44,236 nt of DNA from an uncultured Methanosarcinales archaeon (GTDB lineage: Archaea; Nanobdellota; Nanobdellia; Woesearchaeales; UBA12501), in contig CAYNHV010000008.1 of the NCBI GenBank assembly GCA_964397315.1, positions 1 to 44,236 on the forward strand. Direction: 5' to 3'. The translations under genes and the position numbers were made by a program. The notes below the pieces were generated by a model. That model saw only the letters and a list, made by a program, of their open reading frames with translations. It ran no database searches and was not told where the DNA came from. Positions 2,354 through 24,836 of this stretch are shown here, piece by piece; the first letter of the stretch is position 1; each line of letters opens with the position of its first letter.

Positions 2354-2399
<46 letters not shown>

Positions 2400-2696: not shown

Positions 2697-2712
2697 GAAG
2701 AATCAAACATAT

Positions 2713-3110: not shown

Positions 3111-5991
<2,881 letters not shown>

Positions 5992-8381: not shown

Positions 8382-8440
8382 GCTATCACCTGTATTATCT
8401 TAGAGCTACAGCTAACCAAAAACACAAAGCAGGATCAGGT

Positions 8441-10237
8441 TCAGTACTCTTCCATCTCCTGCCTGTTCTTTACGAGCTCTGGTGGAAAGTGAACATGAGT
8501 GTCTCTGTCCATTATTTCCGAAAAAGAGGGGTTAAGGCGGCGGTTATATTTCAGCACAATGCCTGCATGACCCGCGCTTCCTGTCACAGCCTTTGCTATG
8601 TCTTCAATCCTCTCCCCCTTTTCTGCAGGATAATAATCCCTGGAATACACTTTATCTGAAGATGATTTAGGATCTTCCACAAACCATATCCTGTGGAGCT
8701 CTTCCCTGTTTTTTGCCAGCTCATCAGGTATTACAAGATACTGGTTAACGTATATGAGGTTGGGATTGTCTATGCCATTATGCTCGGCAATGTCCGGATA
8801 ATTTTGGGACGTTCCACTGACTTCCTTGGATATGTCAGAGAGAGTGTCTCCTTTCCTCACAGCATAGACCCACACCTTTGGGTGGTTTTTATAAGGAAAT
8901 GCGCCTAAAGAAGGGTCATCACCCTCTTTAGTGGATGCCTGATTGCGGCCTCCACCGCTTATAGAACGGCTTTCTGACTTATTTCTTTCCAGCGCGCTGT
9001 TAAGGTAGCCTACTCCTTTCACACCCCCATATAAGAGCATGGAGGATAAGACAAACACCCCTCCTGTCTTTGCCAAGAGCCATGAGGTGCTCTTAAAATT
9101 GTCCTTGAATCTTTCAACTCTTGCAATTTCTGACTCAAGCCTTTCCCTGTAAGCAGCCGTCTTTGTGTTTATCTTTTCTATATGGCCTGCGTAGGATTGT
9201 GCAGAGAGAGAGGAGTTATCCTGATTTCTTCTTTTCTCGTTCTCAAGCTCCTGAAGTTCTGAGCTGACATTCCCTAAGTCCCTGAGATTTTTCCTGAATG
9301 AGACATATCTGGAAGTTCTGAATACTATGCTGGCCAGGCCGGGAGGGGAGTTTTCCATCTCCTGGAATATCTGATCCGCCTTTTTCCTGAGGCTTTCCAT
9401 GTTCTCCTTCATGCCTCTCCAGTAATTCTCAATCTCCGAATCAATACCATTCCTGACATCTGAAAGAGTATTCAAAAGAGCTTCTTTTTGTTCTGAGAGT
9501 TCCTCTCTCCGGCACTCAGAAGCCTCATTAATGTAACAATCTATCTTCTGGAGAGCCTCCTTAAGCTGTTCCAGGGTGTAGGCATCCTGCTGGCTTTGGA
9601 TATTCTCTGTATCGTTCCTGATGCTGTCCATTCTCTCCTTTCTCTTTTTCGTCCGGAAATATTCCATGCCCGCTCTCGCCCCCCTCATTACCTTATCATG
9701 TATAGGAGCATCATCATTGAGCAGGTCGTTTATTGCACCTGTGGTGGCGGACATCCTGTCCAGGAACACCAGGCCCTTTAAATCCTTTATATCCCCAGCC
9801 TCATCTATCATATTCACGATTTCGCTGTTATTCAGAAGACAGCAGTAAGCAGTATAAAGCATGCTCAGGCCCAGGTCATCTTTTCCAGTATCATCCTTCT
9901 CTTCACTTCTTGGGATGTCTCCCTTAACACACGATGTATCAATAGATGATAACTTTTCAACACAATGCTTAAGCAGGGTTTCCTCCCCCCCATTCATCCT
10001 GTCATAGAGAGTCTCTGCATCACTAACTCCAAAATCAAGGCAGTAATCAGCCACAATAAGGGAGCCTGGGTCTGAGGAAGGCGCTTCTTTCTCGTTGAGG
10101 TTCTCAATAAGGTAGGACCACAGCAGCCGGTCCTCAAGGTCTCTTCTTTCTGTATCGTTAGGAGGCTTCCCTGAAAAAAGGGATACAAACTTCTCCTCAA
10201 GGCCTTCCTTTTCCTCCCTTGTATCAAATTCCGTCAT
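8441..10237 (-). CDS. Coiled-coil, single-TM protein with C-terminal LysM domain(s)
   Basis: YAVRKGDTLSDISK...IAEHNGIDNPNLIYVNQYLVIP; second degenerate LysM (PAEKGERIEDIAK); TM WLLAKTGGVFVLSSMLLYGG. Confidence 0.85.
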   Translation of the reverse strand: MTEFDTREEKEGLEEKFVSLFSGKPPNDTERRDLEDRLLWSYLIENLNEKEAPSSDPGSLIVADYCLDFGVSDAETLYDRMNGGEETLLKHCVEKLSSIDTSCVKGDIPRSEEKDDTGKDDLGLSMLYTAYCCLLNNSEIVNMIDEAGDIKDLKGLVFLDRMSATTGAINDLLNDDAPIHDKVMRGARAGMEYFRTKKRKERMDSIRNDTENIQSQQDAYTLEQLKEALQKIDCYINEASECRREELSEQKEALLNTLSDVRNGIDSEIENYWRGMKENMESLRKKADQIFQEMENSPPGLASIVFRTSRYVSFRKNLRDLGNVSSELQELENEKRRNQDNSSLSAQSYAGHIEKINTKTAAYRERLESEIARVERFKDNFKSTSWLLAKTGGVFVLSSMLLYGGVKGVGYLNSALERNKSESRSISGGGRNQASTKEGDDPSLGAFPYKNHPKVWVYAVRKGDTLSDISKEVSGTSQNYPDIAEHNGIDNPNLIYVNQYLVIPDELAKNREELHRIWFVEDPKSSSDKVYSRDYYPAEKGERIEDIAKAVTGSAGHAGIVLKYNRRLNPSFSEIMDRDTHVHFPPELVKNRQEMEEY

Positions 10238-10239
10238 TT

Positions 10240-11355
10240 TTATCTTCTCATCCTGACAAATCTTGATCTTGCTGTTTCATCATCCAACACCCTGTATTCC
10301 TGATGATGAATGTCATAAGTATGGTAAGCGGGGTCGGCAAGGATTAATTCTCCACCGATTCTGACTCCTGCACAAGCATGGCGCACCTTCTTACCCTTAT
10401 TATCCCTGGAAACAAAAACATAATTCGCTTCTAATTTAGCCAGCCGGGCCATGGTCACATACAGGTATGCCATCTCTCCGCAGACTCCCTCTTTGGTCTT
10501 TGCAACCTCCTCGCTGTTGCGATACCCCGCCCCCCCTCTCATCTTTTTTCCGTAACTGACATGAACATTAATCCACTGAAATATCTTTTTTGCTTTCTGC
10601 TCATCTGTCATATTGCTTCTGTTCATTTCCTGAGCGACTGCCATAGCTATGTTTGAGATGTTGAAAGGAATGTTCATGTCCCTCTCCACCACCACCATGT
10701 TGTAAGCATCATCCATGCTTATACCTTCAAAGGAGTATGGTGTTGCAGGGTTTGTCCTTCTTCTGATCTCATTAAGGCTTCTTTCTATTAGTTCCTTATT
10801 TTCTGACATTTCCTCATAATTGGAGATCTCTCTTTTGAGGGAGGCTATCCTGTCCTTCAGGGAGCTGTTCAGCTGGTTTTTTTCTTCAAGCTCATCCTGC
10901 GCGCTCTCAAGCCTGTCTCTCAAAGAAGCTGTTTTTCTCTCAAGAGTGCTGTTCAGGCGGCTTTTGCTCTCCACATCTTCCCCCAGATTTTCCACGTCTG
11001 CTTTTATGGAATCCAGCTTATTGTGGTAACGCTCCTCCAGCCTGCTTACTTTAGTTTCCAGCCTGTTCTGGTATTCTGCCTGCACATGCTGCTTTACACC
11101 ATAGGAGGCCCCGACGCCCAAGCTGGTTATTAGTGCTGCGTAAAACAGCACTTTAGCCCCTCTCCTTCCTCTGGAGGGGCTGCCAGCGCTCCATGTATGA
11201 TCATCACCAGATATTTCCGGTTCATCAGCCACTACAGAATCTCCTCCTGCGGCAGATCTTGTCCTCTTTATTTCCTCAACAAGGCTGAAGCCTGAATTAG
11301 CTCTATTCGCAGACTTATTTCTCCTTATCTCCTTGATTAGGTTTGATTCTTCCAT
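10240..11355 (-). CDS. Membrane-anchored transglutaminase-like cysteine protease with coiled coil
   Basis: Cys-His-Asp triad GVCGEMA / HACAG / LADP; TM VLFYAALITSLGVGASYGV. Confidence 0.85.
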   Translation of the reverse strand: MEESNLIKEIRRNKSANRANSGFSLVEEIKRTRSAAGGDSVVADEPEISGDDHTWSAGSPSRGRRGAKVLFYAALITSLGVGASYGVKQHVQAEYQNRLETKVSRLEERYHNKLDSIKADVENLGEDVESKSRLNSTLERKTASLRDRLESAQDELEEKNQLNSSLKDRIASLKREISNYEEMSENKELIERSLNEIRRRTNPATPYSFEGISMDDAYNMVVVERDMNIPFNISNIAMAVAQEMNRSNMTDEQKAKKIFQWINVHVSYGKKMRGGAGYRNSEEVAKTKEGVCGEMAYLYVTMARLAKLEANYVFVSRDNKGKKVRHACAGVRIGGELILADPAYHTYDIHHQEYRVLDDETARSRFVRMRR

Positions 11356-11412
11356 TTTAGCCTTTGTTATTCTTCTCGACCTGCTTTTTTATATTAGGAG
11401 ACAACATTCAGT

Positions 11413-12291
11413 TTAATCCTTGTCTTCAACAGCACAGCTCAGGTTGCTTGTTTCACTTAGATACATACTCTTTATCAACTCAGGCAGATTTCCTGCATCT
11501 TCAAGCTCCATGAAAAACTTGTTGTGGTCCACAAAACCTCTCTGAATTTTGCTGCATAATCCTTTATGTGTTTGATCTCCGCAGTTTATTACGTACATGT
11601 TTTTTATTCTGCCTTTAAGCTCTTCCAGCTCTTTTTTGTAATCAACATTATAGGGACACCCCATGTCTCCTCCCTTAAATCCTGACACTCCATGAGGAAC
11701 AGAATCAATCATGAGTGTGAGAATGGTAGGCTGATCGTAAGTTCTTTTGTTTAATTCCTTAAAAAGACATTCGTACGCTTCAGCTTGATCTCTATTACTT
11801 ACCCTGTAGATTTCTATACTCTCAAGATTCTTTTTTATTCCTTCCACATCCTGGGAGGAGTTGGTTATTTGTATTACAGGGTAAAATTCCGTATTTTTGC
11901 CCTTTTCCTGCTTTAGATTAGGGGGTTTAGGTCGCTGGTTTGCCTCGTGGTCCCCCACACCCGCAATAGTGATATCCATATCTGCTTGTTTAAACAAAGC
12001 CTCGCATATGCACTCTATGTTTGATTTCACTTCTGAAATGAAAGGAAACATACTATAAGTAGTGTCAAATGCAATTATTGCAGAATATCTCTCTTTTTTG
12101 GCAGGTTCTGGCAGATCATCCTTTATCTTAGCACGTCCCTCTTTAACACTGAGCAGTATTTCATAATCCTTATCATAGTCAGATCCATGCTTTTGCTCCC
12201 TTATCTTCCTCACCAGCTCGGATTCCAGGGGGGGAATTACTCTGCCTTTTGCCTTAGACTTCTTTAGTTGCCGTATCAGGTCATTTACCAT
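11413..12291 (-). CDS. von Willebrand factor A (vWA) domain protein
   Basis: MIDAS-like FDTTYSM, AEAY, IDSVPHG; start at 12291 follows a GGAGGT RBS. Confidence 0.8.
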   Translation of the reverse strand: MVNDLIRQLKKSKAKGRVIPPLESELVRKIREQKHGSDYDKDYEILLSVKEGRAKIKDDLPEPAKKERYSAIIAFDTTYSMFPFISEVKSNIECICEALFKQADMDITIAGVGDHEANQRPKPPNLKQEKGKNTEFYPVIQITNSSQDVEGIKKNLESIEIYRVSNRDQAEAYECLFKELNKRTYDQPTILTLMIDSVPHGVSGFKGGDMGCPYNVDYKKELEELKGRIKNMYVINCGDQTHKGLCSKIQRGFVDHNKFFMELEDAGNLPELIKSMYLSETSNLSCAVEDKD

Positions 12292-12292
12292 T

Positions 12293-13195
12293 TTAATACC
12301 TCCATGAGTTATACATTTGTGTGGCTTCCTTATCACTTATTACGCTGAACCTGCGGTGTTTTATGTCAAAAGTATGGTAAGCGGGGTCTGCCAGTATCCG
12401 CCCCCTTTCAGTGTCAACAGCGGCGCAGCCGTGATGCACTTTTTTGTTCCTGTTGTCCCTTTTCACGCTGACATAGTTGGACTTAAGGCCGCAGCTTCTT
12501 GCCATTGTTATGTACAAATAGGCCATCTCTCCACAGATTCCCTCTTTTGTGCTGAGAACCTCTTTTGAGTTCTTGTATCTGTACATGCCTCTCCCTCCCT
12601 CCCCATACTGTATGTTCTGCTCAATCCAGTCAAATATTGCCTTTGCTTTTTCATGATCGCTCCTACTGCCTCTCGTGTGTTTCTTTATTAGTTTCATAAG
12701 CTCTGAATCAATGATGAAAGGATTGCTGACGCAGCCTTCTGTCACTGCCAGCTGGTATCCTCCACATATACCACCCACATCAAGCTTATCATCAGGCTCA
12801 CCATAAAAGCTCCTGTAACTTTCCTTTATCTCTCTGACCAGCTCTGGATTAGGTTCAGGAAGAGATACAGGAGACACAGTGTACAGTTTTTTTACTGTGG
12901 AGTCTTTTCTTATCTCATTGATCATTTCAGATGAGGATACTGTCTCATCCAGGCTATGATAATCGCCCCCATATTTCCCTTTCCTGTCCCTCCTAATCTC
13001 TGTTATAAGGATGCCTTCCCTGCCCCCTGCATGACACTTGTTCTCCCTTACTTTCTCCACTATGTTAGAGTTCCTTCTGCTCCCAAATCCTTTAAAAAAT
13101 CTTGAACTCCTGCTTTGAGGGCCAGATCTGTCCCTTCTACTACAGAATCCTCTTGCTTTTTCCCTTCTGATCAGATCAGTGATATCATCTGCCAT
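12293..13195 (-). CDS. Soluble transglutaminase-like cysteine protease (paralog of 10240-11355)
   Basis: GICGEMAYLYITMAR / HGCAA / LADPAYHTFDI. Confidence 0.85.
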   Translation of the reverse strand: MADDITDLIRREKARGFCSRRDRSGPQSRSSRFFKGFGSRRNSNIVEKVRENKCHAGGREGILITEIRRDRKGKYGGDYHSLDETVSSSEMINEIRKDSTVKKLYTVSPVSLPEPNPELVREIKESYRSFYGEPDDKLDVGGICGGYQLAVTEGCVSNPFIIDSELMKLIKKHTRGSRSDHEKAKAIFDWIEQNIQYGEGGRGMYRYKNSKEVLSTKEGICGEMAYLYITMARSCGLKSNYVSVKRDNRNKKVHHGCAAVDTERGRILADPAYHTFDIKHRRFSVISDKEATQMYNSWRY

Positions 13196-13207
13196 GGTTT
13201 TCAGGCC

Positions 13208-15751
13208 TCAATCCCATACTTTCAGCTCATCACCAGGCATTATGCAGTGGGGGTTCTTCTCATTCCACTCTCCATTAACCCTGCAGTTTCCCACTTCATA
13301 ATCAGCCTGTTTTCCCTTCCCATTAAGCTGGGCAAGCTCGTCTGTCTTGAGGTATATCCTGCTGTTGGAAGGATCCATATCCTCTGATCCCAGATAATTC
13401 TTTGTGATATCCCACAGAGTCTCTCCATTCTCAACAACATGGACTCTGTAAGGCTGTACATGACTCTCTTTATTGAGTGCGTCTCCCCCCTCTTCGCTTT
13501 GAGGGCCTGCTGCAGAATCGTCATACTGGAGGGCTGCAACTGTGGACGGCGTTACAGGAGCATTATTCTGCTGGGTCTTGTACCACCCCATGAGTGAGGT
13601 GAAGGAGATAGCTCCTATGAGAAGTCCCACAGCAAAAGCCTTTTTTCCTCTATTTAAGGTGCTCTTGAGGGCGGAATACCCACCCCCCATAACATTCCTG
13701 CACCTGCTGATACCTTCTCCAACAGAGGATGCTATTCTGGAATAATACTCAGAGAGCTTGTCTCCAACACTTCCCAAAAGGCCTGAATAATCCGTTCTGC
13801 TGGGAGGCCTGAAACCATTATCCCCCCTATCGTAGCTTATAGGAGCGTCTGGAAACTCGTAAGAGTCTCTTCCCTGCTGACAGACAGGAGATAATATCTC
13901 AGCCAGTGTGGTTGTCTGAGGATCAACTACAGGAGTGTTTACCGAGCCGGTGTCCCTTGTGCTTAAGTTTTCCAGCGTCCTCTCAAGATTATCAAACCTT
14001 CCCCACATCCTGTTGTACATAGTCTCCTGTTGTTGCTTCATATCCTGCAGAATACTTTCCAGCTGCTGGCAGCTGTATTCCAGACTCATGTACCTGTCCA
14101 GTTCAACCTCCAGAACATCAATTCGCGACCTCAACTCCTGATTTTCCTGCCTGAGGAGTGATACCTCCCTCTCAAGGGGAGATTCCTCTTGTGAAGCTGC
14201 GCTTCTTTTCCTCCTCGCCCTGTCTTTTTTTATTTCCTCAACTAAATCCTTATTGGAGTTGCAGTTTATGTTTACTTCTTCATTTTTTTTTCCTACCCCC
14301 TTAGGGAGTGAATCAGAAGGCTTTTGAGGGCTGTAACCTCCGCCAGGATCTTTCATCTCTTCCATTTTCTCATAAGATATGGGCGCAGAAGATGAGGGAA
14401 ATTTTCTCTCACGGCCCTCTTTGCAGGCATTGCCCAGTCTGCCAGCAATATCCTCCAGATAGGCTGCTGCAGGCTCTAAGTTTTCCACACTCTCCGCCTC
14501 TCCATGAGATATGTCCCCCTTTACAGTATTCAACAGATTTTTGGCATTATAACAGCCGTCCCACAACACGTCGAGATTTTCATCATAAGACTCATCTCCA
14601 TCAATTACTTCCTTGGCCTTCCTGACCAAGTTAATTTTGCCTGAATTATAACCCAGATTTTCCAGCAAGACCAGAGGGTCTGTCACCTGCTCTCTGGAAA
14701 CATCCTCCTCTGTGTCCTCTGGTAATCTTTTGTCGCTATATGGAGTAATTTTATCAACAATGCTTTCTCTTTTCTTGCCATCCTCCCTTCCCATGTCAAA
14801 TATTCCGGATTTCCTGCTGTCAGCATAATCTTTTATGGGCATGCCGTCAACATTGACGCAGTCATAAATCTCATCCCTCAGCACCTTCTCGTCAAGAGTT
14901 ATGCCATTGGTTTCGTCTACCAGCTCCAGACTAAGCTGGTCATCCCCCAGCTCAATGTAATTGTCAGAGAACGGAGCCTCCTGCACAAGCGCTCTCAGGC
15001 TGCATGCGGGAGGCTCTGCCGGCTGATCATTAGCTCTCTCAAGCTGTCTTGCTGTGGTCTCATTAGTTACTATGCTGTTTATATAACACAGGCCTTTTTC
15101 CAGGGGAAAGGTTATGCCCCCCACAGCATCCCTAAAATATTTTTCCAGCATTTCAGCCATTCGGTCATCAATCCCTTCCTTCAACTCAAAGCTTATTCTA
15201 GATGGAATACTGTGCCTCAGTTCACTGGCCTTGACATAAGGGTCAATATTTTTTTCTATGATCAGATTATCGCCTTCCCTTCTTGCTGTAAAATCGTCTT
15301 TACTAAAGAGATTATGATAATTTCCCACATGAAGGTAGTTTGGAAGGGAGCTTCTATTGGATGTGTAGATACCCCTCAAATTAGTCATGTCCTCATCTGA
15401 ATGAAAAACACCGGCTGAAGCATGGCTGTGCCACAATCCCAAAACATTCATGCCTATCTCTTTTATGAGAGGATAATTTCTTGCAAGGTTATGGTTCCCT
15501 CCAGCCAATTGTTTGATTTCCTGGTTTCTTATGAGAAACGCGTCTTGTGTAATATTGTCCTCCCTATGGGGAGATGTTAAAAGGAAGCATGCTACTTCAT
15601 AAGGCGTTCCAATTATATCTCTTATAATCTTATGATACATATTCAACTTCTTAAATGTCTCATTGGTGATTCTTACAGTGTTCAGATATTTCTTAATCTC
15701 TTTTATTCTCCTGCTTTCTTCCAGTTTTTGAGCTATATCCATTCTTATCAC
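13208..15751 (-). CDS. JAB/MPN+ metalloprotease - coiled coil - TM - LysM fusion
   Basis: YEVACFLL plus WHSHASAGVFHSDED (exact HxH-x7-S-x2-D); TM AFAVGLLIGAISFTSLMGW; LysM HVVENGETLWDI...IMPGDELKV. Confidence 0.85.
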   Translation of the reverse strand: MIRMDIAQKLEESRRIKEIKKYLNTVRITNETFKKLNMYHKIIRDIIGTPYEVACFLLTSPHREDNITQDAFLIRNQEIKQLAGGNHNLARNYPLIKEIGMNVLGLWHSHASAGVFHSDEDMTNLRGIYTSNRSSLPNYLHVGNYHNLFSKDDFTARREGDNLIIEKNIDPYVKASELRHSIPSRISFELKEGIDDRMAEMLEKYFRDAVGGITFPLEKGLCYINSIVTNETTARQLERANDQPAEPPACSLRALVQEAPFSDNYIELGDDQLSLELVDETNGITLDEKVLRDEIYDCVNVDGMPIKDYADSRKSGIFDMGREDGKKRESIVDKITPYSDKRLPEDTEEDVSREQVTDPLVLLENLGYNSGKINLVRKAKEVIDGDESYDENLDVLWDGCYNAKNLLNTVKGDISHGEAESVENLEPAAAYLEDIAGRLGNACKEGRERKFPSSSAPISYEKMEEMKDPGGGYSPQKPSDSLPKGVGKKNEEVNINCNSNKDLVEEIKKDRARRKRSAASQEESPLEREVSLLRQENQELRSRIDVLEVELDRYMSLEYSCQQLESILQDMKQQQETMYNRMWGRFDNLERTLENLSTRDTGSVNTPVVDPQTTTLAEILSPVCQQGRDSYEFPDAPISYDRGDNGFRPPSRTDYSGLLGSVGDKLSEYYSRIASSVGEGISRCRNVMGGGYSALKSTLNRGKKAFAVGLLIGAISFTSLMGWYKTQQNNAPVTPSTVAALQYDDSAAGPQSEEGGDALNKESHVQPYRVHVVENGETLWDITKNYLGSEDMDPSNSRIYLKTDELAQLNGKGKQADYEVGNCRVNGEWNEKNPHCIMPGDELKVWD

Positions 15752-17181
15752 CTTCTGACAGGTTCCGCAGGTCTTAAGGCAAGCCTTTCCTTGTCCTGGG
15801 ATATTCCCTTGAAATGCACATACTTATCATAGTTCATCGTGTAATTGGCAGGGAACATCAATGCAACTGCTTCTGCAGCTTTTACTCCTCCTACTAATGC
15901 ATTAGGCGGGAGCACGCTGGGATTGCAGTGCTCTGTCCTCGGGACTTCATTTGCTGCAAGTTCCTCCAGACCAAATATTTCATTCAAATCTTTATTAAAG
16001 CCAGGAACATAATAATTGATTCTACCCCAATCCAGCCCCACTGCTCCGTCAAAGAGAGGTATGCTGCTGTGCATCGCCGCATCATTCAGTAACTTTCTGG
16101 GAGTCCACCTGTCCACCTCGCTGAAAAGAATATCATAACCTTCTTCAGATATTCTGTCCATTGAATCCTCATCTATAAACTCGTCAAATCCCCTTACCTC
16201 CGCATCAGGATTTATTTTTGAGAGCCTCTCGGCAAGAGAAGACGCCTTGGGCTTTCCCACTTTCCCGTAAAAGAATATCTGTCGGTTCCTGTTATGATCC
16301 TCTACTGTATCGCCATCATAGATATCTATTCTTCCAAAGCCTGTTAATGCCAGATTAAGGGCTGTATAAGTGCCTGTTCCCCCCGCTCCCACAACCAAAA
16401 CCTTCTTTTCTTTAAGCTGTGCCAAGTCAGGAAGGCTGTTTTCCTCTGTGCCGTCATTTTTTCTCTGTTGATGGAACCTTTCAGGAGCATACAAACCAAA
16501 GCTTGTCCAGGCTTTTAGGGGATAATCAAGCTCAAGAGGGCTCAAAACCTTTCTTATCTCATCAGCGCATAAGGCAGCTATCAGTCCGCTGGAGAAGGAT
16601 CCCTGCTCTTTTCTCTTGTATGATGGCATGTCAAAATAATCATAGTAATCCTTTCCGAGTATCCTGCTTACTGACTCATCTTTTGAAAGTCCCCTGTTTT
16701 TAGACAGCGCCTTCTCCACAGGACTCATCCTCCTTGGAGGAGTATAGATTCCTATAGCCGAGGAATCAAAATCACTTCCCAGGCTGATGACTTTTTTTAT
16801 TCTTCCATTGCATTTCTTGTTCAGCTCTTCCGCCATTTTCCTGTAGTTCCTTTTGGAAGTAGGATCATTTGTGCATTCCACCACTACATCAGCGTCGCTT
16901 AGCATGTCAATCTTGTCTTCTATGCTTATCTCTTCATTCATCTTGGACATTGCTTCTTTAAGCTTGGACTTTCTGGAGCCAATTCTGTTTCCAAGAGCAT
17001 AGAGAAACCCATGATTATCTTCTTGTTTGTAAGTGTCCACCAGGGTTATAGTGCCCACACCAAGACCGCACAGGTAAGCGCAGAGATAATTGGCAATAGC
17101 GCCTCCTCCAACTACAGCTACTTTTCCTTTGCTCACTTTTTCCTGGTCAAAGACCCCGCTTTGCCGCGATAAATCCACCAT
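15748..17181 (-). CDS. E1-like enzyme with tandem ThiF/MoeB adenylation domains
   Basis: LSRQ..VVGGGAIA (domain 1, degenerate); VVGAGGTG, DGDTVEDHNRNRQ, GKPKA, candidate catalytic Cys in TEHCNP (domain 2). Confidence 0.9.
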   Translation of the reverse strand: MVDLSRQSGVFDQEKVSKGKVAVVGGGAIANYLCAYLCGLGVGTITLVDTYKQEDNHGFLYALGNRIGSRKSKLKEAMSKMNEEISIEDKIDMLSDADVVVECTNDPTSKRNYRKMAEELNKKCNGRIKKVISLGSDFDSSAIGIYTPPRRMSPVEKALSKNRGLSKDESVSRILGKDYYDYFDMPSYKRKEQGSFSSGLIAALCADEIRKVLSPLELDYPLKAWTSFGLYAPERFHQQRKNDGTEENSLPDLAQLKEKKVLVVGAGGTGTYTALNLALTGFGRIDIYDGDTVEDHNRNRQIFFYGKVGKPKASSLAERLSKINPDAEVRGFDEFIDEDSMDRISEEGYDILFSEVDRWTPRKLLNDAAMHSSIPLFDGAVGLDWGRINYYVPGFNKDLNEIFGLEELAANEVPRTEHCNPSVLPPNALVGGVKAAEAVALMFPANYTMNYDKYVHFKGISQDKERLALRPAEPVRR

Positions 17182-17191
17182 CTTAACCCCC

Positions 17192-18493
17192 TCAAAAACT
17201 CTTTATTCGGAGCTTGTTAGATATTTTACCCCTATCTACCTGATCAGACCTTAAAAGATGATCCTTCCAATAATTACCTTCGTCATGGAATGATTTCCAC
17301 TCAGGACCTCCTGAATAACCCATAGTAAATGTGTTTACCACAGAATTCATTATGTTGCATATAGTATAAGCGAACTCCTCTGATGTGCAACTAGTAGGTC
17401 TTCCTTTTTCTCCTCCCTTATTAGATTCATAAGACCCCGTGCATATAGGTTCATATCCTGAATCATTCTGGACAGAAGGATGTTTTATTTTGTTTATCAA
17501 GAGAGGGGTATCAATTCTGATATTTTGCCCCTCCTTTTTCACAGGAATCCCTATAAGAGCAGGATCTTTGCCGAATTCAGGACCAAACCCATAATATCCT
17601 TTGCCTCTTGGATCATAGAATATATAGCTCTTGTCTACCAGAGCGCATACATAAAACTTATCATCAGATACTTTAAAGCCTATTTTCTTTTCTGGATGTA
17701 TATATTCTCTTCTGTTAAGAAGGCCTACAATTTCCTCCTGTTTTGCGATGTCCTCCAGCTCTCTTGAGAAAGAACTGTTCCTGCTCATAAGATTCTTTTT
17801 TATGTTTTCTTTTATTCTGTTTTTGTACTCTCTCTCAAACGCTTCCAGATCAAAAGGCGACCCGCTCCTCATTTTATACATTCTGTTATTTATATAAAAG
17901 AGATTGTTCTTCTGGGAGGGGTTATTCTCGTCTCTCAAAGGAAATTTCATTCCATTCATGAGCAGAGAATTCTCATTTAAGGATTCCACTATGACTGGCT
18001 TGTCTGAAAGCACATCAAGAGGGTTGTTCCCCCCATCATCTTTTATTATAACATTCCCAATCCGCGCATTTCTTGGGTCGGAGCTTTCTGGCTTGTCTTT
18101 CCCTCCTGATGATCTTTTTTTCTCAGGATCATATCTGGGAACTACTTCTTCAATAACCTTTTTTGCAAAGAAGAAATTATCACCCATCCTGAGGAGGCTT
18201 TCCTGTTTTTCCAACACCCCTTTATGTTTGGAGCTTACGATGTCCTCCAGCGAGGATTTGAGGTGTGAATCAAGAGCGCGGAAATTTTTATTCAGGTAAA
18301 GCTTCTCTAAGTCAGCGATTGCCGGACCTCTTTCAATACCAAAAGCTCTGCCATGCCAGTTGTAATAATCTTTATGGCCATTTCTCTCAGGTATTACTGT
18401 GTGCATTCTGCAGTCCGCTATAACCACAGCTCTCTTGGCCACATTCAGCTTTTCCTTTAGATAGGCATACACTGTAGTTTGAGGCAGGTCCAT
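17192..18493 (-). CDS. Putative E2 (UBC-like) C-terminal domain protein
   Basis: P..INKIKHPSV-x6-EPICTG resembles the E2 HP(N)...IC active-site motif, preceded by beta-rich and followed by helical sequence; lies between the Ubl genes and E1. Confidence 0.55.
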   Translation of the reverse strand: MDLPQTTVYAYLKEKLNVAKRAVVIADCRMHTVIPERNGHKDYYNWHGRAFGIERGPAIADLEKLYLNKNFRALDSHLKSSLEDIVSSKHKGVLEKQESLLRMGDNFFFAKKVIEEVVPRYDPEKKRSSGGKDKPESSDPRNARIGNVIIKDDGGNNPLDVLSDKPVIVESLNENSLLMNGMKFPLRDENNPSQKNNLFYINNRMYKMRSGSPFDLEAFEREYKNRIKENIKKNLMSRNSSFSRELEDIAKQEEIVGLLNRREYIHPEKKIGFKVSDDKFYVCALVDKSYIFYDPRGKGYYGFGPEFGKDPALIGIPVKKEGQNIRIDTPLLINKIKHPSVQNDSGYEPICTGSYESNKGGEKGRPTSCTSEEFAYTICNIMNSVVNTFTMGYSGGPEWKSFHDEGNYWKDHLLRSDQVDRGKISNKLRIKSF

Positions 18494-18540
18494 TTTCTCT
18501 CCAAAAGCAGGAATCCATACAAAAATCACAAAAAAGAGTA

Positions 18541-18981
18541 CTAATCGCGCTGGCGGTACATATCCTTGCCTTGTATACCTCCTGGCTTTCCTAACACCAT
18601 GTCTATGCAGTCATACTCCTCTCCTGTTGGGAGGGTTCTGGAGTCAATATAAGGCTCTATCTTGTAGTCTATACCAAGATTTTCACTGCCTTCAGAATCC
18701 CTTATAGGTTTAAATTCTCCACCGTTATCCTTGTAGGCCATAAAATGACAGGGGTTCTCAGAGTGCTGTCTCAAACTGCTTTTCACATTGTCAGCAGTCT
18801 CGCCCTGTCGGGGAGTCATATCGTCCTTGTTCTTGGTGAGGTACTCTGCAACCTCCTGGAATGTCTTGTCTTTAAAATCCTCCCCTAACTCTTTGATCAC
18901 TGCATACTCATTCCTTTCATCCTCACTTCTGCTTAAATCTTCTTCTGTCAGAAGCATTCCCACAAAATTTCTCTCGCTCAT
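18541..18981 (-). CDS. Ubiquitin-like protein B (GG + 11-aa tail)
   Basis: C-terminus CIDMVLGKPGG|IQGKDMYRQRD; paralog of 19026-19457; start after GGAGGT. Confidence 0.6.
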   Translation of the reverse strand: MSERNFVGMLLTEEDLSRSEDERNEYAVIKELGEDFKDKTFQEVAEYLTKNKDDMTPRQGETADNVKSSLRQHSENPCHFMAYKDNGGEFKPIRDSEGSENLGIDYKIEPYIDSRTLPTGEEYDCIDMVLGKPGGIQGKDMYRQRD

Positions 18982-19025
18982 TTTACCAACCTCCGGTTTG
19001 TTTTTATTTCTCAAATAGATGAGTA

Positions 19026-19457
19026 TTAATCACACCCACCTATTAGGCCAATTACTATGTCTATGCAGTCGTATTCCTCTCCTGAAGGGAGGGTTCTGGT
19101 GTCTATGTAAGGCCTTATTTTATCTTCTATGTTACGCTCTTCATTTCCATCAACATCTCTTACAGCTGTAACTCCTTCCTCATCTTCTTTGTAAGCTATA
19201 AAATAACAGATCATTTTTTGAGGTAATTCTTTATTATGGCATTCTAACATTGATTTTGTTTTGTTAGCGGTCTCTCTTTGCTGGGCAGACAAATCCTCCA
19301 AATCTTCAGCTAGGTCTTCCGCAACCTCCTGGAATGTCTTGTCTTTATAATCCTCCCCTAACTCTTTGATCATAGCATATTCACTCCTTTCATCCTCGCT
19401 TCTGCTACATAAATCTTCTTCACTCAAAAGCATCCCCACAAAACTTCTCTCGCTCAT
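19026..19457 (-). CDS. Ubiquitin-like protein A (GG + 2-aa tail)
   Basis: C-terminus CIDIVIGLIGG|CD (cf. ubiquitin TLHLVLRLRGG); KTFQEV helix start; NIEDKIRPY (cf. LEDGRTLSDY). Confidence 0.62.
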   Translation of the reverse strand: MSERSFVGMLLSEEDLCSRSEDERSEYAMIKELGEDYKDKTFQEVAEDLAEDLEDLSAQQRETANKTKSMLECHNKELPQKMICYFIAYKEDEEGVTAVRDVDGNEERNIEDKIRPYIDTRTLPSGEEYDCIDIVIGLIGGCD

Positions 19458-19499
19458 TTTACCAACCTCTGGTTTGTTTTGTTTTTATAAGGTAAACTA

Positions 19500-20591
19500 T
19501 CATCTTTTAAGATACTCTATATCCCTCCTTGTTCTCTCCTCAAGCTGTTGGTTATTGATTGAATCTTCCCTTCTTGCTCTTGCCAGAGCGTTCTCAGTAT
19601 CCCCCATTGTCCTGTCATATGCGTCTGTTATAGATGACCTTAACATCTTCATGGCTTTTGAGACCTTCATAGTGGCCAGTTTGTGCAGCTCTCCGGAGAA
19701 TTGTGTCACTGATGTTACCTGCTTGTAGACATCATCCCCCACCTGCTGCAGGCCGTACATCATGAGGTAAGGCCCTATAAACCTCTCAAGCCGCCTCTGG
19801 ATCCTTCTTGTCCTGTCGCACATTCTTCGGTATGTGAAGTAATTGGCCATGAATAAATTCTTGAAATCCTTGGACATTCTTATGTCAGCAACATCGTCAG
19901 AGACAGTGTCAAGGGATTTGAGATACTGAAGATAGAGTGTGTTTATCTCACTTTCCTTACTCTCAAGCTCAGTGTCAATTTTTTTCGCCTTCTCACTGAG
20001 AGGATTGTCATTAGGAAACTGAGCTTTCAATTTTTCATATTCCGCTGTTTTTTTTGTTATGTCACTCTCTAAACTTGCCAGGGACCCCTTGCTCTCTACA
20101 GCCTCATCGTAAATCTCGCTCCTGAAGTTCGCCATGTCATGGATGTATTTCCAGCAATTGTTCAGCATAGCTTCTAAATCCTGGTTAAGGTTTTTCACTA
20201 TCACCAGCTCTCTTTGAAAAATCCTGTCCACAGTGGGCTTCTCTGTGCCAAAGAGCTTGTTACTCATGTAATCTGATAATTTCATGAATGGCCTTGTTAT
20301 GGGATACTTGCCTTTTAGAATCTCTCTGTGAAGGGCTTTTTGGCATGTCAGGAGATCTCCTGTTCTCTCTGCAAACTCGTTGTAAAGCACTACACCATAA
20401 GTGGTGGGAGATGTGGAGGTATCCATGCTTGCCACGCTCTCGTGTAAATTCCTGCCCTCAGAGGTGACATTTCCAGGATATACCTCTGGATGCATTACAC
20501 TAGAAGAAGAGCTCACTCTGCTGTTTTCAGTGTCTCTCACTTTCTTCTTCCCCTTGTCTTCCCTGACTTTCTTCAATAAATCATCGCTCAT
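19500..20591 (-). CDS. All-helical coiled-coil protein (weakly TelA/KlaA-like)
   Basis: 363-aa ORF in the operon with heptad-rich helices; family guess rests on size and layout only. Confidence 0.55.
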   Translation of the reverse strand: MSDDLLKKVREDKGKKKVRDTENSRVSSSSSVMHPEVYPGNVTSEGRNLHESVASMDTSTSPTTYGVVLYNEFAERTGDLLTCQKALHREILKGKYPITRPFMKLSDYMSNKLFGTEKPTVDRIFQRELVIVKNLNQDLEAMLNNCWKYIHDMANFRSEIYDEAVESKGSLASLESDITKKTAEYEKLKAQFPNDNPLSEKAKKIDTELESKESEINTLYLQYLKSLDTVSDDVADIRMSKDFKNLFMANYFTYRRMCDRTRRIQRRLERFIGPYLMMYGLQQVGDDVYKQVTSVTQFSGELHKLATMKVSKAMKMLRSSITDAYDRTMGDTENALARARREDSINNQQLEERTRRDIEYLKR

Positions 20592-20597
20592 TCTGAA

Positions 20598-21050
20598 TCA
20601 CCTTTTATAGCCCTCTTTGATATCATCCACAACCTCATCAAGAGCTTTGTTGCCCTCTCTCAGCTTCTTGCCAAGCCGGAAGCCAAAGCCTTTTTTTCCT
20701 CCCTGCTCATTGCCTCCCAGCTGGTTTCCATTGCCCCCCTCATAGGCTGTTATGCAGGTCACCCTCTCCTTCAGAGTGTAAAGTGCGCATTCCTCAGGAC
20801 CCCCTATCAAGAGCTGGCCGTCTCGCTCATGAACAGGAATCCTGTCGCTGCCGTCCTCAACATAGGTCTCAAGCTTTCTGTCCCTCTCCACATATTCTAT
20901 GCTTATGTTCTTTGCTCTCTCCCATGGAGGGAACCCCTCTGCCGGCTTCAGCCCCGAATATGCTGCCTTATTGCAGCTTTGAGCTCCATAAAGCGTGGCT
21001 GCTGCTGTAGCCCCCACAACAATAGCGTATTTCATTATCTTTCCAATCAT
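20598..21050 (-). CDS. Small protein with N-terminal signal/TM segment
   Basis: MIGKIMKYAIVVGATAAATLYGAQSC; first gene of the operon. Confidence 0.65.
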   Translation of the reverse strand: MIGKIMKYAIVVGATAAATLYGAQSCNKAAYSGLKPAEGFPPWERAKNISIEYVERDRKLETYVEDGSDRIPVHERDGQLLIGGPEECALYTLKERVTCITAYEGGNGNQLGGNEQGGKKGFGFRLGKKLREGNKALDEVVDDIKEGYKR

Positions 21051-21079
21051 AGCTTACACCCTGACAGGCATATAGTAAT

Positions 21080-21220
21080 GCATTTTTAATAACTGTTTTC
21101 AGAGCAAAACCGGAAGTGTTGCAGAAAAAGCGGAATGTATCCGGAAATTATGAAAATAATCTGTCAGAACAAATAAATACCTGAAATTTTTCCGGAAATA
21201 ATGGAAGAATATTAGTGGTT
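21080..21220 (-). promoter_or_regulatory. Promoter/operator region copy 1
   Basis: TATA-like TTATTAAAA on the minus strand plus CAAAACCGGAA..CAGAAAAAGCGGAAT, repeated at 21988-22128. Confidence 0.6.
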
Positions 21221-21306
21221 TTTTGGTTTGTTCTTTTTTAAGAGCGCTTCAATCTTTTCGTCTGCTACGCCACCCTGAATGCTTTAAAAAGGAGTTACTC
21301 TATTAA

Positions 21307-21963
21307 TCAGAGCTTTAAACTCAATCTATTAGATACTTTGCTTTTATCTACTTCCTCAGGTTTTAATAGGTGGTCTTTCCAGTATTCTTCATTTCCATGA
21401 AACGTATTCCATTCACACATTCCTGTGTATCCTATAGTGAGAACATTCCTCACATCATGTAATATGCGGATTACTGCTCTTGAGAAATTTTCCTCATCAG
21501 TTTTTCTTGGGCGCTCCAATTCATAATGTCCTATGTCAATTCTCTCATAATTAGAACAAGAAGGACGAGCAGGATGCTTGTATTTGTTTATTAACATAGG
21601 CACATCTATTGATATAGCATCACATTCTTTTACTACAGGAACTCCTATAAGCCCCTCTTCATGCCCAAAATCCGGTCCAAAACCATAGTACTGCTTGTTT
21701 ACAGGGTCATAAAGGATATAACTGTCATCAAGCAGAGCGCAGACATGGAATCTATTATTTGTTATTTTGAATCCCACTTTCTTATCAGGATCCAGATATT
21801 CTTCTCTCACTAATGTTCCAGGAATTTTGTCCTGTTGTCTTGGAGATTTCTCTAATCTCCTCTTAAAGCCCTTCTCTGCATAATGGGGCACATAACAAGG
21901 TATGACCTCCTCCAAAACTTTTTTTGCAAAGAAGGTATTATCTTCTGTTTTATTGTTTAGCAT
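21307..21963 (-). CDS. Truncated paralog of the E2-like protein with Cys-to-Asp at the putative active site
   Basis: Shares FFAKKV.EEV.P, KK.GFK, YYGFGP.FG and YWKDHLL with 17192-18493; HPARPSCSNYERID aligns with HPSVQNDSGYEPIC. Confidence 0.7.
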   Translation of the reverse strand: MLNNKTEDNTFFAKKVLEEVIPCYVPHYAEKGFKRRLEKSPRQQDKIPGTLVREEYLDPDKKVGFKITNNRFHVCALLDDSYILYDPVNKQYYGFGPDFGHEEGLIGVPVVKECDAISIDVPMLINKYKHPARPSCSNYERIDIGHYELERPRKTDEENFSRAVIRILHDVRNVLTIGYTGMCEWNTFHGNEEYWKDHLLKPEEVDKSKVSNRLSLKL

Positions 21964-21987
21964 TATCTCTAATTCCCCATACCAATT

Positions 21988-22128
21988 GCTTTTAATAACA
22001 CTTTCCAGTCCAAAACCGGAAACTCTTCAGAAAAAGCGGAATAATCTCAGAAACAATGAATATGCTTCACAATAGTATTAAAATTCATGAAGGATTTCCA
22101 GAGAAAACGGAAGGCTGTTAGTGGGTTG
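21988..22128 (-). promoter_or_regulatory. Promoter/operator region copy 2
   Basis: Homologous to 21080-21220. Confidence 0.55.
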
Positions 22129-22173
22129 GGAAATATTAGAGATATTAATGACGCCCAAACTTTAAGTATAAAA

Positions 22174-24201
22174 TCACTTATCATTAGAATAATGCTTCTC
22201 CAGCTGTTGGTAGACTATATCCTCTGTTATCCTGAGCTTGCCGTCTTTAACCATAGGAGATTCCCTCATTCCCTTGAGGACTGTGGTTAATATGGATTCT
22301 ATGGCTCTTGCTCCTGTGCCCCTTGCAATAGCCTCCTCTGCGATTGCATGGTAAGCAGAATCATCAAATGTTAACTCAATACCATAGCTTTTACCAAATA
22401 AGATCTGTTTTCCCTGGACATAAGAATCCTTTGCAGTGGTCATTATTTCAACAAGCTGATCCTGATCTAGCTGATTAAGAGCAACTATATCAGGAAGTCT
22501 GCCTATCAGTTCTTTCTTAAAACCATATGCTAGAAGATCTTCTGAAGAGACCCTCTGTAGGGATTCATGCTGATTCGGGCTTTCTTTATTATGATCAGCT
22601 CCAAACCCTAATTTCCTTTTAATGGATCTATTATTCACAATTTCAGCCAAACCATCAAAAGCTCCTCCACATATGTAAAGAATGTTGGATGTGTCCATGT
22701 TTCCATAAGCTGTTGAAACGCTCTCTCCCTCAAGAATTTTGAGCAGCTCATTTTGTAGGTCCTCCCCCCTTATATCCCTCTGGGTTATATCTTTTTGAGC
22801 TATTTTGTCAAACTCATCAAAGAAGACAATACCTCTCTCTGCTTTGTCCACTGCTCCTGCTTTTTCAATGAGTGAGTTAAATGCATTATCTATATTCTCT
22901 CCAACGTATCCTTGGGCTGTTTTACCAGCGAGACCATAAATAACAAAAGGAACTCCAAGAATTTCTGAAACTGTTTGTGCCACATATGTTTTTCCGGATC
23001 CTGTTGGTCCCATCATCAGTATATGTGTATTTTTTACTTTGGTTCTTTCAGATTCAGGCAGCGACAATCTCTGATAATGGTCACAGACTGCTTCTGCTAA
23101 TGAATTTATAGCTTTTTCCTGCCCTACAACATAGGGTTGAACTGCTTTGACAATGCTTGTGGGCTTTTTGTAATCGATTTCAGGCGACCCAGAAGACTTT
23201 TCCATTTTTGGTTCAGGTTTTGGTTTTGATTTTTCTTCTTTGGTTTTTTGGGGCTTTGGCTTCGATGCAGGAGCTTCTGTTTTCCTTGGTTTTTGCCTTT
23301 CTACAGGTTTTTCTCTTATTCCATCTCTCTGTTTTGTGAATTCTTCCATTGAATTGTATTCTCCTTCTTCTTTATTTGAAAAACGGAAAATATATGTTCC
23401 TGAGTTAGTCTTAAATGGGTCAAAACTTTGAAACTTCTCATTAGAATGATATGGTCTTAAATCGTGGTCTTTTACTCTTACAACCAGATTTCCCCCAGGC
23501 ATCTCTTCTTCTTCAAATCTGTATGCAAGGAATAAGGCATTAATTCCTTTCTGGATTACTGAAGCAAACTCCCCCAGGTGGTCTAAGTATTCCCGAAATG
23601 TTTCATCTATCTTATCTGTTTCCTTAAAACGAGGAGTTTTTCTTAGCATAGATGTGTATTGTGTCTCTTTTTTCTCACTTGACCACCAATGTTTTTTTGG
23701 AATATCCACAGTGTAGGGTCTTTCTTTCATTACTTTTTCACCATCATGATTTATGTCAACTACAATTAGTTTCCTGTTTTCTTTAGCATTTGCTTTTCTT
23801 TCTTCTTTGCTGTATCCTAGGTCTCTTAAAACCTCTTTTTCGGCATGCATTATTGCTGTTTCTATATTCCATGCAGCTTTTGTTTCAGGGGTGAATATAG
23901 ATGATAATGCCTCACTTGCTGTTTCCCTGTCTTTTTCTGTATAAACTGGAAATGAAACAATTCTGGCTCCAAGAGCATACTCTCTCCCGTCAGAAACAGC
24001 TGCTGGTGTCACAGAATGGGTAAGCCTCAATTGCGGATTTTTTATATCTGAGAAATTAAATTTCCCACTTCTAAATTCGTTAAGCCGCTTAACTTTATAT
24101 ATCTCAGCAATTTCAAGAGGGATATCTCTAAATTCTGGCTCTCTGCGTATAATCTCATTGGTAAATTCAAAGAGATCCTGTATATCAATGTGTATCACCA
24201 T
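22174..24201 (-). CDS. clpX: ClpX-like AAA+ unfoldase with novel ~290-aa N-terminal region and Lys/Pro-rich linker
   Basis: YVVGQEKA, GPTGSGKT, GYVGE, FFDEFDKI, ICGGAFDGL, LGF loop, ELIGRLP, TGARA; no C4 zinc-binding domain. Confidence 0.88.
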   Translation of the reverse strand: MVIHIDIQDLFEFTNEIIRREPEFRDIPLEIAEIYKVKRLNEFRSGKFNFSDIKNPQLRLTHSVTPAAVSDGREYALGARIVSFPVYTEKDRETASEALSSIFTPETKAAWNIETAIMHAEKEVLRDLGYSKEERKANAKENRKLIVVDINHDGEKVMKERPYTVDIPKKHWWSSEKKETQYTSMLRKTPRFKETDKIDETFREYLDHLGEFASVIQKGINALFLAYRFEEEEMPGGNLVVRVKDHDLRPYHSNEKFQSFDPFKTNSGTYIFRFSNKEEGEYNSMEEFTKQRDGIREKPVERQKPRKTEAPASKPKPQKTKEEKSKPKPEPKMEKSSGSPEIDYKKPTSIVKAVQPYVVGQEKAINSLAEAVCDHYQRLSLPESERTKVKNTHILMMGPTGSGKTYVAQTVSEILGVPFVIYGLAGKTAQGYVGENIDNAFNSLIEKAGAVDKAERGIVFFDEFDKIAQKDITQRDIRGEDLQNELLKILEGESVSTAYGNMDTSNILYICGGAFDGLAEIVNNRSIKRKLGFGADHNKESPNQHESLQRVSSEDLLAYGFKKELIGRLPDIVALNQLDQDQLVEIMTTAKDSYVQGKQILFGKSYGIELTFDDSAYHAIAEEAIARGTGARAIESILTTVLKGMRESPMVKDGKLRITEDIVYQQLEKHYSNDK

Positions 24202-24356: not shown

Positions 24357-24836
24357 TCAAACCCCCACAGCATCAACATACTCAGGATCGCTCATAAAGC
24401 CTTCCTTTTTTATCTCCTCAAGGGTGTAGTACTCCTTAATCTCCTTCACCTTGTATCCCTCCAGCTTCTCAGTAAAATCAGTCACTTCTTTCATGTTCCT
24501 GAATATGCCCTCAACCAGAAAATCATAGCCGTTGTTTATCCTGAAGACTGAGTTCACCCCCTGCTCTTTCATGAGGAACCTTTTAAGCTCATCCCTCCTG
24601 CTCTTGTCAGCTTTCAGGAATATGTTGACTCTTATCTCAAACCCAAGCCTTGAGAAGTCTATGAGGGCTGTGTGCTTCCTGATGATGCCTCCTTCGTACC
24701 GTTTTATCCTTTCAAAAAGTGTTGAGACAGGAATGCCTGTCTGCCTGCTCAATGCCGTAAGGTTCTTCCTTGCGTTCTTTCTCAGATGGGACAGCAAAAG
24801 CAGCTCTTTTCTGCCATTTAATCTATCCATGACCAC
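24357..24836 (-). CDS. Lrp/AsnC family transcriptional regulator
   Basis: LRKNARKNLTALSRQTGIPVSTLFERIKR HTH; IDFSRLG; NGYDFLVE. Confidence 0.9.
   Translation of the reverse strand: MVMDRLNGRKELLLLSHLRKNARKNLTALSRQTGIPVSTLFERIKRYEGGIIRKHTALIDFSRLGFEIRVNIFLKADKSRRDELKRFLMKEQGVNSVFRINNGYDFLVEGIFRNMKEVTDFTEKLEGYKVKEIKEYYTLEEIKKEGFMSDPEYVDAVGV

Follow-up and report, generated by a model that had tools for sequence, protein, structure and literature searches.

Here, we describe a short basic helix of ten residues that recurs in five proteins encoded by one gene run of a woesearchaeal archaeon and that appears to mark the accessory members of a candidate ubiquitin-like protein (Ubl) system. The run lies in a 44,236-nt stretch of DNA (the window), contig C8 of a DPANN genome of 1.47 Mb in 61 contigs with a GC content of 0.457 (labeled G000). 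It comprises eleven genes on the minus strand from 21050 to 8441, spaced by −4 to 57 nt, which encode in order p150, CC363, two candidate Ubls, p445 (a candidate E2-like protein), an E1-like protein, a JAB fusion, a soluble transglutaminase-fold protein (TGase), a vWA protein, a membrane TGase, and a LysM protein. The motif is enriched in this operon, is conserved in homologous loci, has the propensity to form a helix, and is restricted to accessory proteins. On balance, we lean toward the motif being a protein-docking tag of some kind. The fuller explanation, in which this docking helix recruits the accessory proteins and the acidic candidate Ubl is its preferred partner, has in our estimate slightly less than an even chance of being correct.

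The motif was brought to attention by a first-pass annotation of this DNA, made from the sequence without database searches. All twelve ten-residue copies that it reported translate from the minus strand at the positions in Table 1, and they are distributed over five proteins, as it had claimed, i.e., the two TGases, the vWA protein, the JAB fusion, and the coiled-coil protein CC363. The consensus that it gave proved too narrow: four of the twelve copies fit as written, and the remaining eight need relaxed forms. That annotation had also reasoned that the motif should be given up as a generic helix if it were equally frequent in unrelated proteins of the genome. This is not the case, because the motif is ∼10- to 35-fold denser in the operon, both by patterns and by a weight matrix. 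Our background was a greedy six-frame set of open reading frames (ORFs). It covers the whole genome with 1582 ORFs that total 437,421 aa, and 5051 aa of these belong to the operon, taken here as 8441–24201; some gene starts are approximate because the gene calls come from the same kind of greedy ORF script. A strict pattern matches four times in the operon and once elsewhere (0.01 matches expected in the operon), and the relaxed pattern [LIM][IVLM]x[EKQ][IVL][RK]xx[KR] matches eight times in the operon and 19 times elsewhere (0.22 expected). A core pattern has seven matches in the operon, one of them a chance match in the E2-like protein, and six elsewhere. Because knowledge of the operon had shaped these patterns, a weight matrix was built solely from 30 copies of other genomes and then run over G000. 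At a score of ≥12, the matrix finds six matches in the operon and 28 elsewhere (0.39 expected), and at ≥10, it finds eight and 69 (0.89 expected); its top match in the whole genome, with a score of 22.0, is copy 5 of the soluble TGase. With a looser score, 24 proteins have two or more matches within 100 aa, and operon proteins make up three of these.

Conservation outside G000 is the strongest evidence for the motif. Order-wide counts refer to 201 genomes of the same order, with family labels from GTDB; the 201-genome tallies include the unpublished genomes G128, G198, and G147 as rows only, and no example or motif count uses these. First, in G007, which encodes the nearest system with an E1 that is 81% identical, the motif is kept at the N terminus of the CC363 orthologue. 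Second, the tails that precede the TGase core carry the motif far beyond G000. The pattern aliphatic-aliphatic-x-x-aliphatic-[RK], which was defined on G000, has 26 matches in the 1180 tail residues of 18 homologues from other genomes or loci, vs. 3.3 expected at the G000 background rate. Of 20 TGases, the two of G000 included, 11 carry at least two copies, another carries one, and eight lack the motif. The multicopy TGases come from ten GTDB families of the order, i.e., that of G000 and nine others, and those of the nine others carry two to four copies. Third, the CC363 family, the gene of which sits upstream of that for the TGase in homologous loci, has a minimal N-terminal pattern in 27 of the 39 representatives that match the family best, in 22 of 50 that match it less well, and in 9 of the 39 that match it most weakly, compared with 195 of 1284 background N termini and 2 to 8 of 39 internal windows of the same proteins. 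In CC363 subgroups at 10 to 15% identity, the motif is the sole conserved feature of the first ∼60 residues. Fourth, a second lineage, found in metagenome contigs by TGase alignment, has the same gene order and bears the tag on its CC363 homologue, on a ∼760-residue JAB fusion, on the TGase (two to three copies), and on a LysM-type protein.

Within loci, the motif is found on some classes of protein and is scarce on others. In a dereplicated tally over all loci, a copy within the first 35 residues was found in 14 of 18 CC363 proteins, 20 of 38 TGases, 7 of 15 LysM-type proteins, and 6 of 17 JAB proteins, with long fusions making up five of these six. For the core and other proteins, the corresponding counts are 0 of 24 for E1, 3 of 20 for the candidate Ubl, 5 of 25 for the E2-like protein, and 0 of 3 for p150.

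A profile of 76 dereplicated copies defines the form of the motif. Three pre-helix positions rich in N, D, S, or E are followed by L or I; by V, I, or L; by two variable, mostly charged positions; by I or L; by K or R; and by a basic or polar tail. The tag has a charge of ∼+1.6 over 11 residues, a mean hydrophobicity of −0.31, and a hydrophobic moment of 0.49. Usually, the motif starts 3 to 8 residues past the initiator Met, and a disordered linker comes next; in TGase tails, the copies are repeated about every 20 residues, often 19 to 21 residues apart. At the DNA level, similarity between copies is confined to the ∼24 nt that encode the motif and, therefore, the copies are not recent DNA duplicates. 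The conserved basic position speaks to one reading offered in the first-pass annotation, namely a Ubl-acceptor site. In this reading, the Ubl would be conjugated to a lysine within the motif, comparable to the SUMO consensus site. The order of an aliphatic residue, K or R, any residue, and often an acidic or polar one does resemble a consensus modification site. However, Arg takes the place of Lys freely, with 57 K and 19 R among the 76 copies, six R and two K in G000, and four R and no K in G017, the proteins of which are Lys-rich. Because the two residues interchange in this way, we regard an acceptor site as extremely improbable.

The same properties could suit a helix at the membrane interface, which by lying on anionic archaeal lipids would hold the soluble TGase, the vWA protein, and CC363 beside the anchored LysM protein and TGase. 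The motif is amphipathic and basic, several copies lie a few residues before a membrane helix (in two G017 proteins and in the membrane TGase), and much of the system is membrane anchored. Against this, the helix offers three aliphatic residues and no aromatic one at its negative mean hydrophobicity, lipid-binding helices seldom show position-specific conservation together with an N-cap, and proteins that already have a membrane helix are tagged too. We consider a lipid-binding role quite unlikely.

A common docking element is the simplest explanation, because fixed aliphatic positions with an N-cap, carried on a flexible tail, are shared by unrelated accessory proteins and are absent from the core enzymes. 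A shared docking tag, which the first-pass annotation had listed among its readings, fits best: the sites are conserved in orthologues and in relatives at 10 to 15% identity, and they are on accessory and not on core proteins. Both protein binding by the motif and the choice of its partner are inferences on our part. We suggest that a short linear docking helix would mark the accessory proteins, i.e., the two TGases, the vWA protein, CC363, and the LysM anchors, and would bring all of these to one common partner. The preferred partner would be the strongly acidic candidate Ubl, either free or conjugated. Proteins that bear the tag would read the Ubl mark or serve as its effectors, much like proteins with tandem ubiquitin-interacting motifs (UIMs), and several copies would give avidity; the arrays with regular spacing likewise suggest avidity for a multivalent partner. 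We prefer the candidate Ubl because all members of its family are acidic while the tags are basic, because the CC363 and Ubl families co-occur, the latter being present in 7 of the 9 genomes that match CC363 strongly vs. 11 of the other 192 (related genomes are not independent samples), and because the pairing of vWA with a helix and of a cysteine enzyme with a helix array parallels Rpn10 and ataxin-3. Taken by itself, the identification of the candidate Ubl as the partner of the tag is tentative and less likely than not to be correct. Complex prediction with the E2-like alignment, the Ubl alignment, and residues 1 to 45 of the membrane TGase gave 0.36, 0.00, and 0.21 in its runs compared with a mark of 0.32 and argues neither for nor against binding.

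Several observations weigh against a docking tag that reads the candidate Ubl. The motif holds only ∼15 bits and, therefore, ordinary helices also match it, such as those in FtsY, EF-2, and a nitroreductase-like N terminus; the 69 matches elsewhere in G000 at a matrix score of ≥10 belong here. Similarly, helix 1 of the helix-turn-helix domain in regulators of the Lrp/AsnC family resembles the motif, so that 11 of 13 such regulators match the pattern, and we treat these as a class of false positives. Low information, many unrelated matches, and Lrp look-alikes are what would be expected if the motif were a generic amphipathic helix of no dedicated function, favored by basic low-complexity tails. 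Such a helix would not account for the 8- to 35-fold enrichment in G000 and other genomes, for the same site being kept in proteins that have diverged to 10 to 15% identity, or for the scarcity of the motif in core enzymes of the same loci, and we judge it very unlikely. Returning to the docking tag, the eight of 20 TGase homologues without any copy fit it poorly. With regard to the partner, G092, which is 96% complete, has a three-copy TGase, no E2-like gene was found in it, and the one Ubl-like ORF at its locus is weak; the CC363 family is also present in G116 and G117, which gave no Ubl match. A Ubl paralogue of G007 has an N-terminal extension with a motif-like stretch, which misfits a simple reader model. 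Moreover, the tag is usually at the extreme N terminus, which is no requirement of UIM-type readers, and the docking of the tag to any operon protein is a step that we infer.

An alternative that keeps the docking helix and changes its partner is a substrate-recognition tag. The helix would dock on the large E2-like protein, which has ∼250 to 300 residues beyond a UBC-sized core, or on E1 or JAB, and the tagged proteins would be conjugated on the lysines of their tails. The tagged proteins come into question as conjugation targets because no E3 is encoded; no E3-like gene was recognized at the locus in Pfam scans of the locus proteins, and the E2-like family, with members of 380 to 502 residues, is always encoded beside E1. 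That the motif is only on noncore operon proteins, with tails rich in Lys and Arg, is also consistent with this alternative. However, one docking site would suffice for a substrate, yet TGases carry two to five regularly spaced copies. In addition, the tagged TGases of G092 occur without an E2-like match, and the E2 fold of p445 is only a candidate. We find a substrate tag unlikely, albeit less so than a lipid-binding or generic helix.

Finally, the motif had been proposed as a recognition signal for the ClpX-like unfoldase encoded upstream. ClpX substrates carry N-terminal recognition motifs, and the likeness consists in a short N-terminal signal of hydrophobic and basic residues and a ClpX-type ATPase gene nearby, here an AAA+ gene that encodes a novel N-domain and lies 1.1 kb upstream of the run. 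Moreover, an unrelated AAA+ gene adjoins the tagged TGase fusion of G092. In contrast to ClpX signals, the tag is not co-conserved with the ATPase and its N-domain. A single-sequence query found this N-domain in 1 of 201 genomes, G000 only, as opposed to the motif in ten GTDB families; the gene is absent from the G007 locus and from other tagged loci, and two gaps, of 210 and 256 nt, lie between it and the run. For these reasons, we see next to no likelihood of a ClpX signal as the general explanation, and the ClpX-like protein itself is probably outside the conserved system.

The tag may be compared with several known systems. In UIMs, which are helices of ∼20 residues, an acidic stretch is combined with a hydrophobic residue, an Ala that is invariant, and a Ser that is conserved; Rpn10/S5a combines vWA with UIMs, and ataxin-3 a cysteine protease with UIMs. 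Like UIM arrays, the tag is a lone short helix set in disordered segments and frequently repeated in tandem, on vWA and papain-like/TGase-fold enzymes of a candidate Ubl pathway, with a charge complementary to that of the modifier. Unlike UIMs, it is basic, ∼10 residues long, and mostly at the extreme N terminus, lacks both an acidic flank and a conserved Ala or Ser, and shares no sequence relationship with them; the 76-copy profile, with its basic flanks, does not fit the UIM sequence definition. Encapsulation peptides of microcompartments and cargo-loading peptides of encapsulins are short terminal amphipathic helices with a poorly conserved linker that serve as a common address. The tag resembles these in being one terminal helix plus linker on several unrelated proteins of one operon and differs in being less hydrophobic, strongly basic, and repeated in tandem; no Pfam family of shell or encapsulin proteins was detected among 15 locus proteins. 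For both UIMs and encapsulation peptides, the likeness is at most a functional analogy. The E2 of NEDD8, Ubc12, has an N-terminal docking peptide that binds its E1 and DCN1. This peptide is similarly an aliphatic-then-basic helix at the extreme N terminus and a docking element in a Ubl cascade; however, it sits on the E2 itself, whereas the tag is on accessory proteins and near background on the E2-like protein (5 of 25). We rate the tag as a probable docking short linear motif in what would be a Ubl pathway.

As for the operon as a whole, bacterial Ubl operons (Bil and the type II CBASS Cap2/Cap3 systems) similarly encode a Ubl precursor, an E1, a cysteine E2-like protein, and a JAMM peptidase, and PADLOC E1-E2 models match the E1 described here. 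The present operon differs from these in being archaeal (DPANN), in having E2-like and Ubl proteins that match no family model, and in its tagged TGase, vWA, coiled-coil, and LysM genes. Bub systems are reported to have oxyester intermediates and a Ser-His peptidase (10.1101/2024.11.21.623953). The present operon instead has an invariant Cys and a JAMM peptidase. The literature on DPANN or Woesearchaeota combined with ubiquitin-like terms, judged mostly from listings, yielded no publication that describes an operon or a tag of this kind.

Table 1. Features of the window, in window coordinates.
Feature	Position	Strand	Remarks
Archaeal rRNA operon	868–6005		within window
LysM protein (598 aa)	8441–10237	−	last gene of run; Pfam LysM 1.2e-09; no motif in G000
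Membrane TGase	10240–11355	−	tail with two copies, membrane helix 69–87, coiled coil, TGase core; Pfam Transglut_core 1.7e-13; triad
Membrane TGase motif copy 2	11257–11286	−	
Membrane TGase motif copy 1	11314–11343	−	
vWA protein	11413–12291	−	homologues carry Pfam VWA or VWA_4; D-x-T-x-S metal-site pattern; 1-nt gap to upstream gene
vWA motif copy 2	12190–12219	−	
vWA motif copy 1	12253–12282	−	
Soluble TGase	12293–13195	−	basic N-terminal tail of ∼137 residues, then core; Pfam Transglut_core 1.5e-13; Cys-His-Asp triad motifs
Look-alike in soluble TGase	12674–12703	−	first helix of folded TGase core
Soluble TGase motif copy 5	12815–12844	−	highest weight-matrix score in genome
Soluble TGase motif copy 4	12899–12928	−	
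Soluble TGase motif copy 3	12983–13012	−	
Soluble TGase motif copy 2	13037–13066	−	
Soluble TGase motif copy 1	13157–13186	−	
JAB fusion	13208–15751	−	JAMM peptidase, linker, motif, coiled coil, membrane helix 705–723, LysM-like end
JAB fusion motif copy	14219–14248	−	residues 502–511
E1-like protein	15748–17181	−	two ThiF-type halves; Pfam ThiF 8.4e-51; PADLOC E1-E2 models; NCBIfam ThiF/MoeB/UbaA below curated cut-offs
p445, candidate E2-like protein	17192–18529	−	always adjoins E1
Candidate Ubl 2 (157 aa)	18541–19014	−	net charge −10; GG, then 11-residue tail; 61% identical to Ubl 1
Candidate Ubl 1 (143 aa)	19026–19457	−	net charge −21; C-terminal Gly-Gly followed by two residues
CC363	19500–20591	−	all-helical, uncharacterized family; one N-terminal motif copy, then disordered linker
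CC363 motif copy	20553–20582	−	residues 4–13; conserved in G007 orthologue
p150, small N-terminally anchored membrane protein	20598–21050	−	first gene of run; no motif
p218	21307–21963	−	paralogue of C-terminal half of p445; 48% identity over 191 residues; Asp at Cys column
ClpX-like AAA+ protein	22174–24201	−	NCBIfam ClpX 6.6e-87 over residues 335–669

Five of the motif copies are in the tail of the soluble TGase, where they start at residues 5, 45, 63, 91, and 119. The look-alike further downstream in this protein is a core helix and not a linker motif, because it is kept in homologues with and without tails. In TGase homologues (L026–L048), core helix 1, which follows a conserved Asn-Pro-Phe turn, has the residue pattern of the tail tags; a duplication of this core helix may have given rise to the tags, or the two may be in competition. 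Both TGases of G000 belong to PF01841, for which the cut-off is 23 bits and their scores are 51.2 and 51.4, and both have the Cys-His-Asp motifs. The tails were also considered as Gln/Lys-rich transglutaminase substrates, and this idea was dropped; the copies have no set position for Gln, and those of G000 seldom contain it. Searches of viral contigs for TGase relatives found none. Two loci elsewhere in the order have tagged proteins of other architectures. At L018 (G017:C5), a 206-residue protein (15852–16472, −) has a two-copy tagged N terminus that is nearly identical to that of the adjacent TGase and is without a TGase core, and two paralogous membrane proteins (1248–2339, −, and 2341–3636, −) have one copy a few residues before the membrane helix. 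At L065 (G092:C9), an 823-residue TGase fusion with three tag copies (7649–11697, +) is encoded directly after an AAA+ gene unrelated to ClpX.

The vWA protein of G000 by itself is without a Pfam match; it is assigned through homologues that match PF00092 or PF25106, and an alignment of 20 sequences shows no variation in the D, T, and S columns. Its true start is probably the ATG one base past the TGase stop, which would place copy 1 at residue 4. The closest vWA homologue (37% identical) likewise has two N-terminal copies. A distant vWA subfamily (L081–L085, from Woesearchaeota, Nanoarchaeota, and Methanosarcinales metagenome-assembled genomes) pairs with a protein of ∼415 to 430 residues with a conserved N terminus. 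This subfamily has its own conserved N-terminal helix and no Ubl genes nearby; its helix, which may be a different element, was left out of the motif counts.

The JAB fusion has the JAMM signature HxH-x7-S-xx-D at residue 108. Its Pfam Prok-JAB match (0.0032, 17.8 bits) is below the cut-off of 25, which the JAB of a related metagenome operon exceeds with 39.1 bits. In G007, the corresponding fusion (L013, G007:C3, 2–2132, −) is encoded by two genes that overlap by 14 nt and is split just ahead of the motif; therefore, the membrane/LysM half is there an independent protein with an N-terminal tag. Similarly, LysM-type relatives in a metagenome lineage begin with one motif copy.

In an AlphaFold2 model with a mean confidence score (pLDDT) of 77, CC363 has a helix at residues 3 to 15, a stretch with pLDDT below 50 at residues 19 to 39, and a helical body with a long hairpin. 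A profile search assembled a family of 155 representative proteins. No Pfam family is common to these, and among the 43 members scanned, no one family occurs in more than two; profile and sequence searches of the PDB with CC363 gave no match. For CC363 and p218, the ESM Atlas yielded no usable match. A faint hint of TelA, which came from 10% of a single cluster with a score of 0.86, was not borne out, and TelA was absent from the families of the 43 scanned members. The neighboring p150 has an orthologue in G007 and a relative in G037, and none of its three family members has the motif.

The labels Ubl and E2 are putative and are drawn from context, the C-terminal GG, and the invariant Cys. In the alignment of the candidate Ubl family, most of the 14 members have a C-terminal GG plus a short tail, and every member is acidic, with a net charge of −2 to −25. 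Against Pfam, this family gave nothing convincing, one of the 14 members matching ThiS at an E value of 0.077, and it gave no match to PDB sequences. The two candidate Ubls of the window (18541–19485, −) are tandem duplicates, with 74 to 87% nucleotide identity that includes the ribosome-binding region, and their tails past Gly-Gly differ. In the 17-member alignment of the E2-like family, the sole invariant residue is one Cys, which comes after a nearly invariant His-Pro; Pfam E2 families match none of the 17 members, and a PDB search gave no match. PADLOC and NCBIfam searches of the candidate Ubls and the E2-like protein recognized no family, and the only matches gained were those of E1 and ClpX. 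The E1-like protein has the two ThiF stretches of ThiF/MoeB-type adenylating enzymes, with GxGxxG at residue 265, and as a query in a genome-contig collection it found no related locus.

Two further genes lie upstream of the run, that for p218 after a gap of 256 nt and then that for the ClpX-like protein after a gap of 210 nt. The Asp in place of the Cys suggests that p218 is inactive and resembles a ubiquitin E2 variant; it is also retained in the G007 locus. The AAA+ module of the ClpX-like protein scores 292 bits, below the curated 359 for ClpX. ClpX proper also has a zinc-binding domain at its N terminus, and residues 1 to 340 of the protein described here, the N-domain, have no Pfam or PDB match. 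An Lrp/AsnC regulator borders the system in many loci, here at 24357–24836 (−), and Lrp genes are present in L018, L055–L058, L065, and L118. At the other end of the window, the 16S rRNA match (868–2515, +) covers 1648 nt against a model of 1478 positions, which suggests an insertion, and a gene for a 23S rRNA intervening-sequence protein (PF05635; 6155–6694, +) is located just past the 23S gene. Scans for sigma-70 promoters and terminators, with models not applicable to archaea, gave results at the level of shuffled sequence.

To our knowledge, prokaryotes rarely use short linear motifs as an address shared by several products of the same operon, and in Ubl pathways such motifs are known almost exclusively from eukaryotes. 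The tag provides a practical handle on an uncharacterized archaeal candidate Ubl system, because it predicts membership, including that of proteins of no known family, and the ten-residue peptide is directly usable as bait for its partner. A wider proposal, which we consider speculative and improbable, is that DPANN archaea have a form of Ubl signaling with its own reader code, in which a basic helix, single or arrayed, recognizes an acidic Ubl and assembles a vWA receptor, TGase isopeptidases or cross-linkers, and LysM anchors into an envelope-spanning machine that acts on the cell surface or on a host cell. If true, this reader code would be an independent prokaryotic invention of the logic of UIMs, Rpn10, and ataxin-3. 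If the candidate Ubl is the partner of the tag, modifier-reader motifs would have evolved outside eukaryotes, and protein tagging would be linked to cell-surface enzymes in episymbiotic DPANN archaea.

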